From a virus: a stretch of 64,000 nt of DNA. Where the stretch lies: positions 64,001 through 128,000 of IMG/VR virus record IMGVR_UViG_3300027970_000001; one strand, given 5' to 3'. This document shows, piece by piece, positions 10,475-64,000 of this stretch (its first letter is position 1; every line of letters starts with the position of its first letter). The position numbers and the translations under genes are program-made. A model generated the notes under the pieces. The model did no database searches. It worked only from the letters and a program-made list of their open reading frames with translations, and was not told the DNA's origin.

Positions 10475-11575
10475 ATGCCGCGCAAGCTTCAACCAAACGA
10501 CCGTGGATTCCGATGGAATCGCGGAACGAAGGTCTACCACGCCACCTTGGCGCTCGATGCGGTGCTGTCCGAGGGGCTGAAGTCTCGTCGAGACCTATCG
10601 GAGCGAGTTCAGGCCACGGGCGGCGGCCCCGATGAGGCGATCAGCTTCACGACGGACATCAGGGTCGCCCGCGCGATCTGCGTGGGCCTCGTTACCCTAG
10701 CCAAGATCGCAAAAGGTCAGATGCTCCTCGGCGACCTGGTCATCTCGGCGAGCAACGTCGCGCCGGAAGCGACGCGGTTGACCCTTGCTGACATGAAGCT
10801 GCGGGAGATCGACATTGTCAACCGAGACCGCGGCCTCTTCCCCTTCTCCAGCAGCGCATGGTCCGCCGGGGAGAAGGTGGACGTCGACCTCGCGGTGGCT
10901 GAGATCGCGGCAGATCCTGCATCTTTTGAGGACGTGAAGACCGACTCGATGAACGACGGCGCTCCGTATGCCGTTTCAGGATGGTCCAAGGCCGAGGCGC
11001 TCAAGAAGATCTTGCGCCAGCCAGACCAGTTCAACCCGCGCTCCACCGCCAAGATCGGGTTCGAGTTCTACAAGAGGCACTGGCTACCCTACGCCTTCTG
11101 GGACAAGGCCGCCTACAACCCCGACTTCATCGGCACCTCCGCAAGCAAGATGGCGGAGGTCGACGAGTCTCAGATCGGCATTCTGGTCGCCACGCTCGAT
11201 GCGGACTGGGTCTGCACAGAGAGCAAGGCGGCCGAGCAGATGGGCTACTACGATGAAGCCCAAAGCATCCGCTGGGATATCGGAGACTGGGCGCACGATT
11301 GCGAGCACGCCCTTCGTTTCGGGCACAGGGTTCGGACCATCCCTCGCGGCACCGGATGGGAGCAGCCGGACCCCAAAGACACCGTCTACTACGTCTGGAA
11401 CCTGTCAGAGCCGCGGGTTTACGACAGCGGCATGATCCGGGGACTGAAGCTTGAAGAGGAGGCCGACGACGCGCTCTCCAAATGCGAGCAGGCTTGGTAC
11501 AAGAACGGCATCGAGCTGCAAGCCCCTCCGATCGCCCACCCTTGGTTCACGGAAGAAGCGCCGTACATGCGGTGA
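10475..11575 (+). CDS. ADP-ribosyltransferase-like protein
   Basis: VYHAT...VLSEGLKSR...GGGPDEAISFTTD. Paralog of 23344-24216. GAGG SD; N-terminal LQPN motif. Confidence 0.55.
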   Translation: MPRKLQPNDRGFRWNRGTKVYHATLALDAVLSEGLKSRRDLSERVQATGGGPDEAISFTTDIRVARAICVGLVTLAKIAKGQMLLGDLVISASNVAPEATRLTLADMKLREIDIVNRDRGLFPFSSSAWSAGEKVDVDLAVAEIAADPASFEDVKTDSMNDGAPYAVSGWSKAEALKKILRQPDQFNPRSTAKIGFEFYKRHWLPYAFWDKAAYNPDFIGTSASKMAEVDESQIGILVATLDADWVCTESKAAEQMGYYDEAQSIRWDIGDWAHDCEHALRFGHRVRTIPRGTGWEQPDPKDTVYYVWNLSEPRVYDSGMIRGLKLEEEADDALSKCEQAWYKNGIELQAPPIAHPWFTEEAPYMR

Positions 11576-11587
11576 GATGGAGATGAC

Positions 11588-12007
11588 GTGTCGGATGAAT
11601 CCGGTTTTTCTGTCGTAGACGAAGGAGACGAGCTGTCAGTACACGCGGCTGACCTCGGCTTTGCATCGTTTCTGTACGGGTCGACAAGACACGTTGTCGA
11701 GACGCTGCTCGCTGCGGAGCGCGCTGAGACGGCCGAGTGGGCAGCGGACGCTGGAGACGAATCAATTGCATGGCTGACCGGGATCGAGGTCGTGCCAGGC
11801 CAAAGGCGCTTGGGCCTCGGAAGCGAGATGCTGGTGCGCGGCCTTGAAGAGCTGGAGCAGAGGGGCGTGGCTCTCGTGTTCTTGAACTCGATGCCCGACT
11901 TGGGCTACGAGCGGAAGCTTCCGGCGTGGTATCGAAAGCACGGGTTCCGATCTGCCGGCAAGATGGACGGGACGACCGTTTACTTCCAGCATCTCTCGGG
12001 AGAATAG
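11588..12007 (+). CDS. GNAT acetyltransferase
   Basis: LTGIEVVPGQRRLGLGSEMLVRG...LPAWYRKHGFR. Confidence 0.85.
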   Translation: MSDESGFSVVDEGDELSVHAADLGFASFLYGSTRHVVETLLAAERAETAEWAADAGDESIAWLTGIEVVPGQRRLGLGSEMLVRGLEELEQRGVALVFLNSMPDLGYERKLPAWYRKHGFRSAGKMDGTTVYFQHLSGE

Positions 12008-12151
12008 GGACCCCGGCCAAGTTTGTCTTGCCATCTTGATCGAGGGGTGATCTAACGTGGACGTGCGGCGCGACACGACGGCAGAGGCAACGATCGTTGC
12101 CAAGTACGCTACGATGGAAGGCCTTCTCGACGAGCGAGGGCGCCGAGTTCG

Positions 12152-61566: not shown

Positions 61567-62658
61567 TCAGCGGCTGCTGCGGCGCTTTGCTCGGCGGCGA
61601 CGGTTGGCTGCGATCTTCTTGGCCTGCTGCTTCTTCCAAAAGAAGTAGCCAGCAGTACCAGCAGCGAGCACGCCCACGCCGATTGCGATGTGGGTCGTGG
61701 TGATGCCGCCGGATGCGGCCGGAGCAGGCGCTGGCGCGACAACAGCAGCCGGGGGCGCCTCGGCGGTTCCGGGGGGAGCAGCGGGAGGGGCCTCCGAGGT
61801 CGCAACGACCTCTGCGGCGACATCGACAACCTGATCGACGGACTCGCCGCCGGAGTTGAAGGCGTCAAGGTCCGCCCGCGGATCTGCCACCTTCTTCGAT
61901 TCGACGTCGACCGCGTTGGCCTTCTGCTCGGCCTGCTTGACGTCGGCGGAAGCGTCGGAGGCGACCTTCTCGGCCTGCTGGGTCTTGGCGTCGACCTGCT
62001 GAACCTCAGCGGCCTTCTTGGCGGCCTCCTCGGCAAGCCGCTTGGCTTCCGCCAACTTGGCGGCAGCTTCGGCTGCGGTCTTGGCAGAAGCAGCCTCGGC
62101 GGCCTTCTTTTCGGCGGCAGCGGCAGCGGCAGCGGCCTCCTTCTTCTTTCGGCTCAACTCGGCGTCCAAGGCCGCGAACCTCGCGAGCGCGGCGGCCCCG
62201 TCTGCACGCTGCTTTTCCACGGCCTTGAGCGCGGCCTTAGCAGCCTCGGCCTTGGCAACGTCGGTGGCGCTGAGCCACGCGAAGTAGAACGCGGGCTTGT
62301 CGAGCGCAACCACGTTCAGGCGGCGAAGCGTATCGGACAGCGACGGGTTGCGGATGAACCCAATGGCCTCTCCGGCGTAGAAGCCACGGAGACGCGCGTC
62401 AAGCTTGTTCCGCTTGTTCAGGTCGTCTCGCACGTCCTGGCTGAACGGGCCAATCCAAGCGCCGCTACGGCCTCGGGCGTATGCCGCAGCAAACGCCTGG
62501 CTGATGAACTTCCCGGGAGCATCCGGGCTGAACTTCATCGCCGTTTCAACAAGCCACTTGACATAGGGGTCCGTGCCAGCCGGAATCGCGGCGGAGGTCG
62601 GCGACAGCTTGACGCCAAGGGTCAGGGGAGCGAGCCCGAGGTTGTGATGGTAGGTCAT
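61567..62658 (-). CDS. Ala/Lys-rich coiled-coil membrane protein (spike- or tape-like candidate)
   Basis: MTYHHNLG leader, long AEA/AKK helix, TM, tail IAANRRRRAKRRSSR. Confidence 0.65.
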   Translation of the reverse strand: MTYHHNLGLAPLTLGVKLSPTSAAIPAGTDPYVKWLVETAMKFSPDAPGKFISQAFAAAYARGRSGAWIGPFSQDVRDDLNKRNKLDARLRGFYAGEAIGFIRNPSLSDTLRRLNVVALDKPAFYFAWLSATDVAKAEAAKAALKAVEKQRADGAAALARFAALDAELSRKKKEAAAAAAAAEKKAAEAASAKTAAEAAAKLAEAKRLAEEAAKKAAEVQQVDAKTQQAEKVASDASADVKQAEQKANAVDVESKKVADPRADLDAFNSGGESVDQVVDVAAEVVATSEAPPAAPPGTAEAPPAAVVAPAPAPAASGGITTTHIAIGVGVLAAGTAGYFFWKKQQAKKIAANRRRRAKRRSSR

Positions 62659-62665
62659 CGTCGAT

Positions 62666-63553
62666 TCACTTCTTGATGGTGGTCGTCTGATGAGCGCTGC
62701 GCAGCGTGGATGCGAGCGTGGCAGAGGGCGCCCGGAACTTCAGCGCGGAAGCCGAGAGCGAGACCTTCGCGGTGGGGCCGGGAGAAGAGATGAGGCTGCC
62801 AAATACGGGGGCTCGCACGGTCACGCCGGCAAGAGCGCCTGCCACCTGCTGCCGGGCCGCAATCTGACGCGGGCTAGGCTGCGTCAGGATGTTGGTGAGC
62901 AGCTCGTCTGAGATGCGGATCTCATCGCCGTTGGCGTTCGGTCCGAAGTTGATGCCGCTTGGCCAGTAGCCGACGTTGGCACCCTGAGCCTTGGCCTCGG
63001 TGTACCAGTTGCCAAGGGCCGTCACCATCGCCGACTCGTCCTTGGTCGAGACGGGCTGGCTGTTGTCCAGATACTTGGACTGAACCAGCTTGTTGTAGAT
63101 GGCGTCGGAGTAGAGGTGGTCGCCCTGAGAGAGGCGCACATACCCGTCCTCGGTGTTCTTACGCCACATCGAGCGCGGCTCGCGCAGCAGGGCGTAAAAC
63201 GCCTTGTTGATGCGAAGGTCCTTCGACTCGTTGGTGTTCGGTCCGAAGTTGAACTCGCCCCTGGCTCCGGGCCAAAGCTCCTTGGCTCGTCCCATCCTGA
63301 CCCAGACCGAGCGCAGGGCGCGCATGAAGGGCCCGTCTTCCTTGAGCTGGCCGTCCACGCGGGGCGCCGTAACGAGCGGAGAAACAGCTTGCAGGCGCTT
63401 CAGGATTGCGAGCATGCCACCGAGCACCGCGTCGTCTCCAACGCGGCCCCAGTCCTGCTCATGCTCGAACTGCTGCATGTAGCTGCCGTTCTCGAACGGG
63501 GGCAGTTCGCCGGAGTTCGTGACGGCGATTTCGCCAAGCCTGCTGTAGCTCAT
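62666..63553 (-). CDS. putative virion protein with internal duplication
   Basis: MSYSRLG leader; FNFGPNTNE..LRINK and INFGPNANG..IRISD repeats. Confidence 0.6.
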   Translation of the reverse strand: MSYSRLGEIAVTNSGELPPFENGSYMQQFEHEQDWGRVGDDAVLGGMLAILKRLQAVSPLVTAPRVDGQLKEDGPFMRALRSVWVRMGRAKELWPGARGEFNFGPNTNESKDLRINKAFYALLREPRSMWRKNTEDGYVRLSQGDHLYSDAIYNKLVQSKYLDNSQPVSTKDESAMVTALGNWYTEAKAQGANVGYWPSGINFGPNANGDEIRISDELLTNILTQPSPRQIAARQQVAGALAGVTVRAPVFGSLISSPGPTAKVSLSASALKFRAPSATLASTLRSAHQTTTIKK

Positions 63554-64000
63554 CGCATCCTCTTGTTCCGACGGCGGTTGGCCACCATCTCAGGGGAAGG
63601 CGCCGCAGCCAGCTTGCGCTTCTGCCGGCGCTTCTTGACCAGGCGCACGGCGACAGCGCCGCCCACGAAGATGAACGTGCCGCCAGCCATCCAGGCCCAG
63701 CGCGGCATGCCGTGGAAGTCGCGCATGAACCAGGAGAGCGGGACTTGCTGCTCGGCCTTCTGGAGCTTCGCCACCGCGGCGTCGATGCCAGCGAGCGCCT
63801 GGTTGATGGCGTCCGAGTTGTTGCTCAGGGCCGACGCCGCGGCCTCGCCGCGCTCGAAGGCGGCGGCGACCGAGCGAAGAAACCCGTCAAGCGACCTCTG
63901 GGCCACCGAGAAGTACATGCAGCGGCGGTACTCGCGCGCGACGCCGATGTTGATCTTGGAGATCTCAGACTGAACGTCGGCCAGAACCTCATCACGAATC
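63550..64000 (-). CDS. membrane protein with Arg tail (5' part outside the window)
   Basis: Frame is open to the right edge; TM WAWMAGGTFIFVGGAVAV; tail MVANRRRNKRMR. Confidence 0.65.
   Translation of the reverse strand, partial: IRDEVLADVQSEISKINIGVAREYRRCMYFSVAQRSLDGFLRSVAAAFERGEAAASALSNNSDAINQALAGIDAAVAKLQKAEQQVPLSWFMRDFHGMPRWAWMAGGTFIFVGGAVAVRLVKKRRQKRKLAAAPSPEMVANRRRNKRMR

Follow-up and report, generated by a model that had tools for sequence, protein, structure and literature searches.

The 64,000-nucleotide stretch of DNA analyzed here ('the window'; positions 64,001 to 128,000 of IMG/VR virus record IMGVR_UViG_3300027970_000001) represents the late half of the roughly 140-kb genome of an uncultured virus. 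In about 20-23 of the proteins it encodes, a short motif, a hydrophobic residue three positions before an asparagine (Asn), stands at the border of stretches rich in arginine (Arg) and lysine (Lys); we refer to basic stretch and motif together as a tag. The motif exceeds chance expectation, keeps one direction and persists at its junctions in distant relatives. We propose that hydrophobic-x-x-Asn at basic stretches may be the recognition site of a maturation endopeptidase, a reading that we regard as evenly balanced between right and wrong. The best candidate for that protease is a predicted transglutaminase-fold enzyme with a Cys-His-Asp triad, encoded by the same virus, whose link to the tags is weak.

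The motif marks the edges of basic stretches in late proteins

The window has a G+C content of 62-65% and carries nearly all of its genes on the minus strand. Small early-type genes fill its first 9.7 kb (1-9.7 kb), and the remainder consists of enzymes and a particle-building block. Codon-model gene calls recover all gene ends listed in a preliminary description of this DNA, which had proposed that [LVIM]-x-x-N marks the ends and domain junctions of more than 25 unrelated late proteins.

The 66 proteins of the late block contain 134 instances of [LVIM]xxN, where shuffling within each protein gives 97.7 (z 4.1); none of 1000 shuffles reached the observed count. Within 30 amino acids (aa) of the termini, 38 instances compare with 21.1 in shuffled sequences (z 3.9). 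The 21 early proteins show no excess (16 instances, 16.8 expected). The enrichment over composition-matched controls, on which the preliminary description had made its proposal depend, is borne out. The excess in the late block is about 35, and most single instances are chance since so loose a motif is common. At the basic stretches themselves the signal is sharper: L, V, I or M occupies position -3 in 15 of the 23 window Asn that are followed by at least three K/R in five residues, compared with 3-5 at positions -5, -4, -2 and -1. Two scans over four genomes yielded the same residue. When Asn was not presupposed, it emerged as the residue most enriched directly before a basic run (48/282, 5.6-fold), and across all 20 residues X, [LVIM]..X was most over-represented for X = N (z 6.3). 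The motif also has a direction. The hydrophobic residue sits at -3 whether the basic run follows the Asn, as in C-terminal tails, or precedes it, as in N-terminal leaders, and there is no signal at +3.

The strict form of the tag is found on 21 window proteins, among which BLAST detects no similarity. About four of these look like chance (two early proteins and the IbrA/IbrB-like pair), and about six further proteins carry variants with P, T or F at -3 or without a basic run. A fair count of credible tagged proteins is thus about 20-23; the carriers are unrelated, as the preliminary description held, and its count was slightly generous. An Asn boundary is present on 9 of the 16 basic C-tails in the window. 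Proteins that end exactly in the motif are not notably frequent.

These controls bear on the plainest alternative, namely that the pattern arose by chance, through biased composition or because a few paralogues share descent. About 98 instances are indeed expected in the late block, and several of the tail-anchored membrane proteins could be old paralogues. But Asn stands out in the shuffles, in the position controls and in the 20-residue scan alike, no similarity is detected among the 21 proteins with a strict tag, and the signal recurs on non-homologous proteins of other genomes. We therefore find this explanation scarcely credible.

The tagged proteins are given below, together with the candidate capsid gene for context. 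L052, cited for genes at the window's edge, is a locus from a 139-kb contig that is 99.6% identical to the window across 10.9 kb and runs on beyond base 64000.

10475-11575, plus strand: 366-aa protein, N-terminus MPRK-LQPN
13248-13517, minus strand: 89-aa membrane protein; LRLN, then a basic C-tail
13514-13744, minus strand: 76-aa membrane protein; FKKN (Phe at -3), then an Arg tail
14898-15149, minus strand: 83-aa protein starting LTQN-P
15146-16018, minus strand: 290-aa protein starting MRRN-P
16526-17026, minus strand: basic K/R-T-S-K/R leader ending LAMN-P, if the start is 17026 (gene called as 16526-17104)
19759-21216, minus strand: PcfJ-like 485-aa protein; LAKN, then SRRR near the C-terminus
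23344-24216, minus strand: 290-aa protein, basic leader ending PRRN-P
24235-26196, minus strand: GNAT and ART-PolyVal enzyme; ITKN, then a 12-residue K/R-T-S tail
26848-28497, minus strand: hexapeptide-repeat transferase; leader MTRRN-P and C-terminal IVPN-K
28500-30221, minus strand: 573-aa protein; LEQN-P at the N-terminus; IEKN, then a basic tail
30701-34150, plus strand: MORC/GHKL-like ATPase, 1143-1149 aa; K-R-T-S-R-R leader ending VSRN-A
36900-39251, minus strand: SNF2-family helicase; N-terminus ends ISRN-A
39262-40110, minus strand: DUF5824 protein; internal PRRN-G and a K-R-T-S-R-R-R run between two halves
49274-50068, minus strand (context): candidate major capsid protein, 264 aa, beta-rich, highly conserved, untagged
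50262-50960, minus strand: capsid-adjacent 232-aa membrane protein; Arg leader ending MRRN-P directly before a conserved hydrophobic domain
50992-53544, minus strand: 850-aa basic polyprotein; every basic run ends [VL]-x-R/K-N; a PKYVVMN unit between two Asn, twice
55325-56536, minus strand: NUDIX protein; LKRN-V at the end of the leader; internally LKQN, then R-K-T-S-R
57310-57999, minus strand: 229-aa protein; internal VAAN, then an Arg run
58026-58655, minus strand: membrane protein; VAKN, then RRRR at the C-terminus
59446-60306, minus strand: membrane protein; VQPN, then an Arg tail
61069-61494, minus strand: 141-aa protein; VAAN, then a 13-residue Arg tail
61567-62658, minus strand: 363-aa membrane protein; IAAN, then an Arg tail
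63550-64000, minus strand: C-terminal part of a 480-aa membrane protein (whole: L052:8562-10004); MVAN, then an Arg tail

The sites that the preliminary description listed are present at these gene ends, with one correction: MRRNG, taken there for an N-terminal site, is internal, at residue 121 of 30719-34150. For LAMNP the earlier proposal was sound, as a start at 17026 in the 16526-17104 gene yields a typical basic leader with LAMN-P at its end. In the 83-aa LTQN-P protein, N-P-P is kept in paralogues and orthologues and may therefore belong to the fold. Orthologues of the PcfJ-like protein carry longer Asn-bounded Arg tails.

The tag carriers are membrane proteins and effector-type enzymes (ART, GNAT, SNF2, MORC-like and NUDIX). 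Overall, the window's enzymes comprise the GNAT and ART-PolyVal protein, the hexapeptide transferase, the SNF2 helicase, the GHKL/MORC-like ATPase, NUDIX, PcfJ-like and DUF5824 proteins, and DnaJ. The domain repertoire of the tagged enzymes is that of proteins injected with DNA (PMC5512222). Judging from gene position and domain type, the tagged payloads would be virion proteins.

Many basic stretches in the window are built from the word K/R-T-S-K/R, which is found 33 times, in 13 window proteins, where 1.4 would be expected (z 25; for example in 16118-16441, 24235-26196, 42300-42731 and 50992-53544) and is weaker in the relatives. The word is similar to the sites of basophilic kinases, and the lineage has a conserved gene for a dual-specificity phosphatase; that phosphate might control DNA binding through it is a thought prompted by the sequence. 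Two familiar signals were considered for the tags and rejected. N-glycosylation is at odds with sites that lack a sequon and in which Pro often follows the Asn, and Sec/Tat or type IV secretion signals are at odds with tags that occur at both ends, internally and in arrays.

Junctions conserved across relatives and a basic polyprotein

The relatives in IMG/VR are complete genomes of 140-171 kb, two of which have terminal repeats. Four related complete genomes (153-171 kb) were retrieved for comparison; the labels G001-G005 denote related complete genomes. G001, G002 and G004 carry the same signal as the window, with z 4.4-5.4 in G001 and a hydrophobic residue at -3 in 33 of 52 sites there and in 31 of 55 in G002. 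Their basic C-tails are Asn-bounded in 10 of 23, 20 of 36 and 7 of 18 cases, respectively.

The clearest conservation is seen in the capsid-adjacent protein. A homologue search for it gave four sequences only, and we used the neighboring genes of the retrieved loci to assemble the orthologue set. Its Arg leader is highly divergent, yet in 10 of 10 orthologues, among them those of a clade whose capsid protein is only 33% identical, it closes with [M/L/Y]-x-x-N immediately upstream of the conserved domain. Conservation of the Asn in homologues, on which the preliminary description had staked its proposal, thus holds down to this distance. Elsewhere the tags come and go. The leader of the MORC-like ATPase is present in the window and in G004, where it ends PTRN-P, and is absent in G001; the tail of an M23-like protein is bounded by Asn in G002 and G004 but is plain Arg in G001. 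By sequence comparison, the tags are add-on modules that have been gained and lost among orthologues.

The basic polyprotein concentrates the motif. Its homologues, 760-924 aa long, consist of basic runs each closed by [VMLI]-x-x-N; in G001, G002, G004 and G005 these form arrays of 12-17-residue Arg units, every one of which ends in [VMLI]-x-x-N. The reading frame is uninterrupted in G004, and the sites are retained into the clade with 33% capsid identity. Between basic runs lies a seven-residue unit (P/Q-K/R-Y-V-V-M/V/A-N; residues 381-387 and 519-525 of 50992-53544) that is fenced by two Asn and kept in G001, G002, G004, L001 and G003-like loci. This unit may represent the optimal site, or else a peptide that is released and has its own function. 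In the distant clade the core sites, those of the polyprotein and the capsid-adjacent protein, are kept, and tags elsewhere are almost absent, with 0 of 18 tails Asn-bounded. As a separate observation, in all relatives the same C-terminal ending, Gly-Tyr-x-Gly-Gly-x-Phe...Leu-Phe-x-Gly-Met, is found on both the polyprotein and the capsid-adjacent protein.

How might these elements work together? The Arg/Lys-rich stretches, often built from K/R-T-S-K/R, would bind the packaged DNA and so hold membrane proteins and effector enzymes beside the genome, while the polyprotein would supply protamine-like material. The motif joins the basic stretch to the protein body and keeps its N-to-C sense regardless of which side is basic. 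An endopeptidase would then free the basic modules from their carriers and break the polyprotein up into short Arg peptides, as happens to pVII and pX/Mu in adenovirus. We favor cleavage because the direction is fixed in both contexts, because arrays of Arg units are each closed by the motif, because a short unit is fenced on both sides, and because the adenovirus core provides a parallel.

Alternatively, the tags may never be cut. The Arg run could bind DNA or acidic lipid, and the motif could be read by a packaging adaptor or serve as a hinge or cap, the proteins staying intact. This is the main rival to cleavage, and we consider it somewhat unlikely. The tags are modular, the membrane anchors that bear them face what is presumed to be the DNA side, roughly half of the basic tails do without the motif, no dedicated Asn-specific protease family (C13 or C14) was found in five related genomes, and Asn is a good helix cap at either end. 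Yet a cap or hinge leaves unexplained why the hydrophobic residue stays at -3 in both orientations, why short Arg units follow one another with nothing between them, each closed by the motif, and why a seven-residue unit is fenced by two Asn.

Two features of the sites weigh against recognition by a maturation protease. About half of the basic C-tails have no Asn boundary, and Pro often follows the Asn in leaders, which is awkward for an endopeptidase with Asn at P1 and fits Asn at P1'. The cut could therefore fall before the Asn rather than after it.

Those Asn-Pro sites also invite the idea of autocatalytic cleavage through succinimide chemistry, as in asparagine peptide lyases, reovirus mu1 (at Asn-Pro) and the nodavirus coat protein, in which case no protease would be needed. 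Asn-Pro self-cleavage is known in virus capsid proteins, and many leader sites have this form. Such chemistry requires folded catalytic surroundings, however, whereas the tracts that hold these sites are divergent, probably disordered and located in unrelated proteins; the tail sites are Asn-Arg, and the conserved hydrophobic residue at -3 points to recognition by another protein. We judge self-cleavage very improbable. Legumain (C13) and the asparagine peptide lyases would resemble the window's system in having Asn at the cut bond, if Asn is P1; the lyases cut only themselves, within a folded domain.

A candidate enzyme in the virion module

The gene that heads the membrane-protein cluster in the virion module is a core gene of the lineage, present in 10 of 10 related genomes examined, and encodes a transglutaminase-fold protein of 186-199 aa. 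The copy of the window's own virus is encoded about 5 kb beyond base 64000 (L052:3959-4519, 186 aa). The catalytic residues follow the order Cys-His-Asp (DCD...H...D), with C120, H158 and D175 invariant in 22 sequences. Against the Pfam model Transglut_core (PF01841), the G001 orthologue scores 18.1 bits, below the cut-off of 23, and three homologues have a precomputed PF01841 match. The AlphaFold2 model is good (predicted local distance difference test score, pLDDT, 77.5) and displays the transglutaminase core fold. It matches the putative cysteine proteases 3kd4 (Z 12.2, root-mean-square deviation 3.1 over 147 residues) and 3isr (Z 10.1), the transglutaminases TG3 and factor XIII (Z about 10), the LapG protease (Z 9.2) and PNGase (Z 8.6). 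The enzyme is also homologous to gp34 of Salisaeta icosahedral phage 1 (SSIP-1, JN880423), which is annotated as a structural protein (hhalign 97.4%, E 1e-11). Its best BFVD match, I1ZBG7 (E 2.7e-9), has 304 aa, a length equal to that of gp34, and is putatively the same protein.

The virus-encoded protease that the preliminary description called for thus has a candidate, a Cys-His-Asp enzyme of a protease-containing fold in the virion module; what tempers the match is that the enzyme also occurs where tags are rare or absent. SSIP-1 encodes it, yet has 75 [LVIM]xxN against 84 expected and zero Asn-bounded tags, and the distant clade encodes it, yet none of its 18 tails is Asn-bounded. The link between enzyme and tags is weak for this reason. 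In addition, the fold also houses transglutaminases, amidases and PNGase, so that protease activity is not implied. A predicted complex of the enzyme with a 51-residue polyprotein segment scored 0.00, which is evidence neither way. Since the enzyme is found beyond the range of the tags, a different motif may be what it serves, for example the N-terminal M-S-Y...G-L-G leaders of membrane proteins.

Such starts are common in the lineage. Many small membrane proteins (window 41913-42269 and 57310-63553; L052:1-10000; G001 48-56 kb) begin with M-S/T-Y or M-x-Y-H, followed by (G)LG(Q) within about 10 residues, and there are 18-21 M-S/T-Y...(G)LG(Q) starts per related genome, the tag-poor clade included.

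The fold raises a further possibility, that the enzyme acts on the Asn side chain, by deamidation or by forming an isopeptide bond to Lys or another amine, and so fixes the Arg modules covalently in the core or membrane. The enzyme aligns as well with transglutaminases and with PNGase, which acts on modified Asn, as it does with proteases, and isopeptides between Lys and Asn are known from pilins and the HK97 capsid. By contrast, known transglutaminases use Gln rather than Asn, the tags are rich in Arg rather than Lys, and here too the enzyme is more widely distributed than the tags. We consider side-chain chemistry improbable.

Returning to cleavage, the proposal of the preliminary description, a motif cut after its Asn, has gained in that the motif is enriched, conserved and modular and that a candidate enzyme is encoded; the cut itself and the place of Asn at P1 are what we infer. 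Other protease families gave no lead. Searches for adenain (C5, PF00770), the HK97-type protease (S78, PF04586), C13 (legumain) and C14 returned zero matches in the five complete related genomes, the T4-type S77 family not being among those searched. A DUF2201_N putative metallopeptidase with a VWA domain lies beside a MoxR-type AAA ATPase (G001 27276-29749; L020:7276-9749) in 6 of 10 related genomes. Tag abundance does not covary cleanly with this gene, which is found in G001-G004 and in two of six tag-poor genomes.

Taken to its full extent, the proposal would be that a transglutaminase-fold virion enzyme has evolved an Asn-directed endopeptidase activity and matures a 140-170-kb tailless, membrane-lined bacterial virus, turning the polyprotein into protamine-like Arg peptides and freeing DNA-tethered effectors and membrane-protein tails. 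This would be convergent with adenovirus core maturation, with an unrelated protease and a new site. We offer this complete scenario tentatively, as one that we would sooner expect to fail in some part than to hold throughout.

The virus lineage and its parallels among known systems

The window's bacterial virus is probably a tailless one with a jelly-roll capsid and an internal membrane. The capsid candidate (49274-50068) is represented by 251 metagenomic clusters at 66-97% identity. Its AlphaFold2 model is poor (pLDDT 50), and the fold matches obtained from it are jelly-roll-like only, with a best Z of 5.5-5.9 on that pLDDT-50 model and the longest alignments to PRD1 P3 and poxvirus D13. An atlas search gave a weak lead (0.76) to PM2 P2 and PRD1 P3. 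Two terminase families had zero matches in the five complete related genomes; other terminase models and portal families lay outside the search. A tblastn search of 50,697 cultured phage records retrieved no homologue of the capsid candidate, the transglutaminase-fold enzyme or the 1149-aa ATPase. Profile searches against PDB sequences with the capsid candidate, the enzyme and a conserved 248-aa core protein gave chance-level matches only, and an atlas search with the 248-aa protein gave no match.

Around the capsid candidate, 43896-45581 holds two more core genes (327 aa with an N-terminal coiled coil, and 228 aa) that are kept in all five genomes. At 45674-47526, within the particle-gene block, lie PAPS-reductase/DUF3440 (IbrA-like) and ParB-like (IbrB-like) genes with 54% identity to genes of diverse phages. 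A homing-endonuclease gene (LAGLIDADG/HNH, 47523-49166) separates this pair from the capsid candidate and has no counterpart at that place in G001. A tRNA-Leu gene is located among the late genes at 19308-19389 on the minus strand. Among nine contigs of metagenome-assembled genomes that carry capsid-gene homologues (L055-L063), four were binned to Planctomycetota groups (Phycisphaeraceae, Planctomycetota, Pirellulales) and the rest to scattered other phyla, which is only a hint at a planctomycete host.

We found no paper on this lineage or this motif. To what was noticed before, the present analysis adds the conservation of the junctions across deep divergence, the unbiased residue scans, the enzyme in the window's own virus with its homology to SSIP-1, and the negative covariation results. 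Should the sites prove to be cut, the virus would provide the first described case of a maturation protease system in a tailless bacterial virus that contains a membrane, hydrophobic-x-x-Asn would be a protease specificity new for phages, and the tag would be a simple, portable means of loading arbitrary enzymes beside viral DNA. It would also mean that a lineage of bacterial viruses independently evolved core processing of the adenovirus type. Even uncleaved, the tag would list the proteins placed beside the genome and hence candidate injected anti-defense effectors. The lineage is widespread in metagenomes, with hundreds of capsid clusters, and its genomes are several times larger than those of its cultured relatives.

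One group for comparison is the tailless internal-membrane jelly-roll viruses of the PRD1, PM2, SSIP-1 and SPV1 kind. The absence of a match to the two terminase families in five genomes is in keeping with them, and the gp34 homologue is a gene shared with a cultured member. SSIP-1 itself is a tailless membrane-containing phage whose gp34 has the same Cys, His and Asp motifs; it differs in its 44-kb genome and in that the 304-aa gp34 has a C-terminal membrane anchor. LapG and the putative proteases 3kd4 and 3isr, bacterial transglutaminase-like cysteine enzymes, resemble the candidate enzyme in fold and Cys-His-Asp triad at 8-19% sequence identity. LapG cuts its adhesin at an Ala-Ala site, and we know of no Asn specificity in the transglutaminase-like protease fold.

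In T4, the prohead protease gp21 removes capsid-targeting sequences at [LI]xE. These sequences are carried by internal proteins and by Alt (PMC5512222), and in phiKZ and SPN3US prohead protease sites are likewise shared by head proteins (PMC5694885, PMC7411985). The system proposed here resembles T4 in that a removable tag would load enzymes, including an ADP-ribosyltransferase, into the particle for injection, and resembles both T4 and phiKZ in the use of one short motif across many head proteins. In contrast to T4, the window's tags are Arg-rich, occur at either end and internally, and have Asn rather than Glu as the key residue. T4 and phiKZ are also tailed, with HK97-fold capsids and assemblin-fold serine proteases, whereas the window's lineage has no S78 or terminase match. 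The polyvalent proteins of phages and conjugative elements have the same repertoire (ART-PolyVal, GNAT, SNF2, NUDIX and PcfJ-like) and the same predicted delivery with DNA (PMC5512222). They are, however, single giant fused polypeptides with a built-in metallopeptidase, while the window encodes mostly separate one- or two-domain proteins, each tagged.

The parallel with adenovirus extends to the logic of the core. Adenain (AVP) cuts pVII, pX/Mu, pVI and pTP at (M/I/L)XGX-G and (M/I/L)XGG-X. The window's virus, known here from genes alone, has Asn where the adenovirus site has Gly, has no adenain homologue in the five genomes, and has a transglutaminase-fold candidate in its place. Nevertheless, both place a short site, with a hydrophobic residue fixed a few positions upstream, on many unrelated virion proteins, and they probably have a jelly-roll capsid lineage in common. 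Adenovirus precursors give rise on cleavage to basic proteins that condense DNA and to a small Arg peptide, and the same is proposed here for the basic polyprotein and the tagged proteins.

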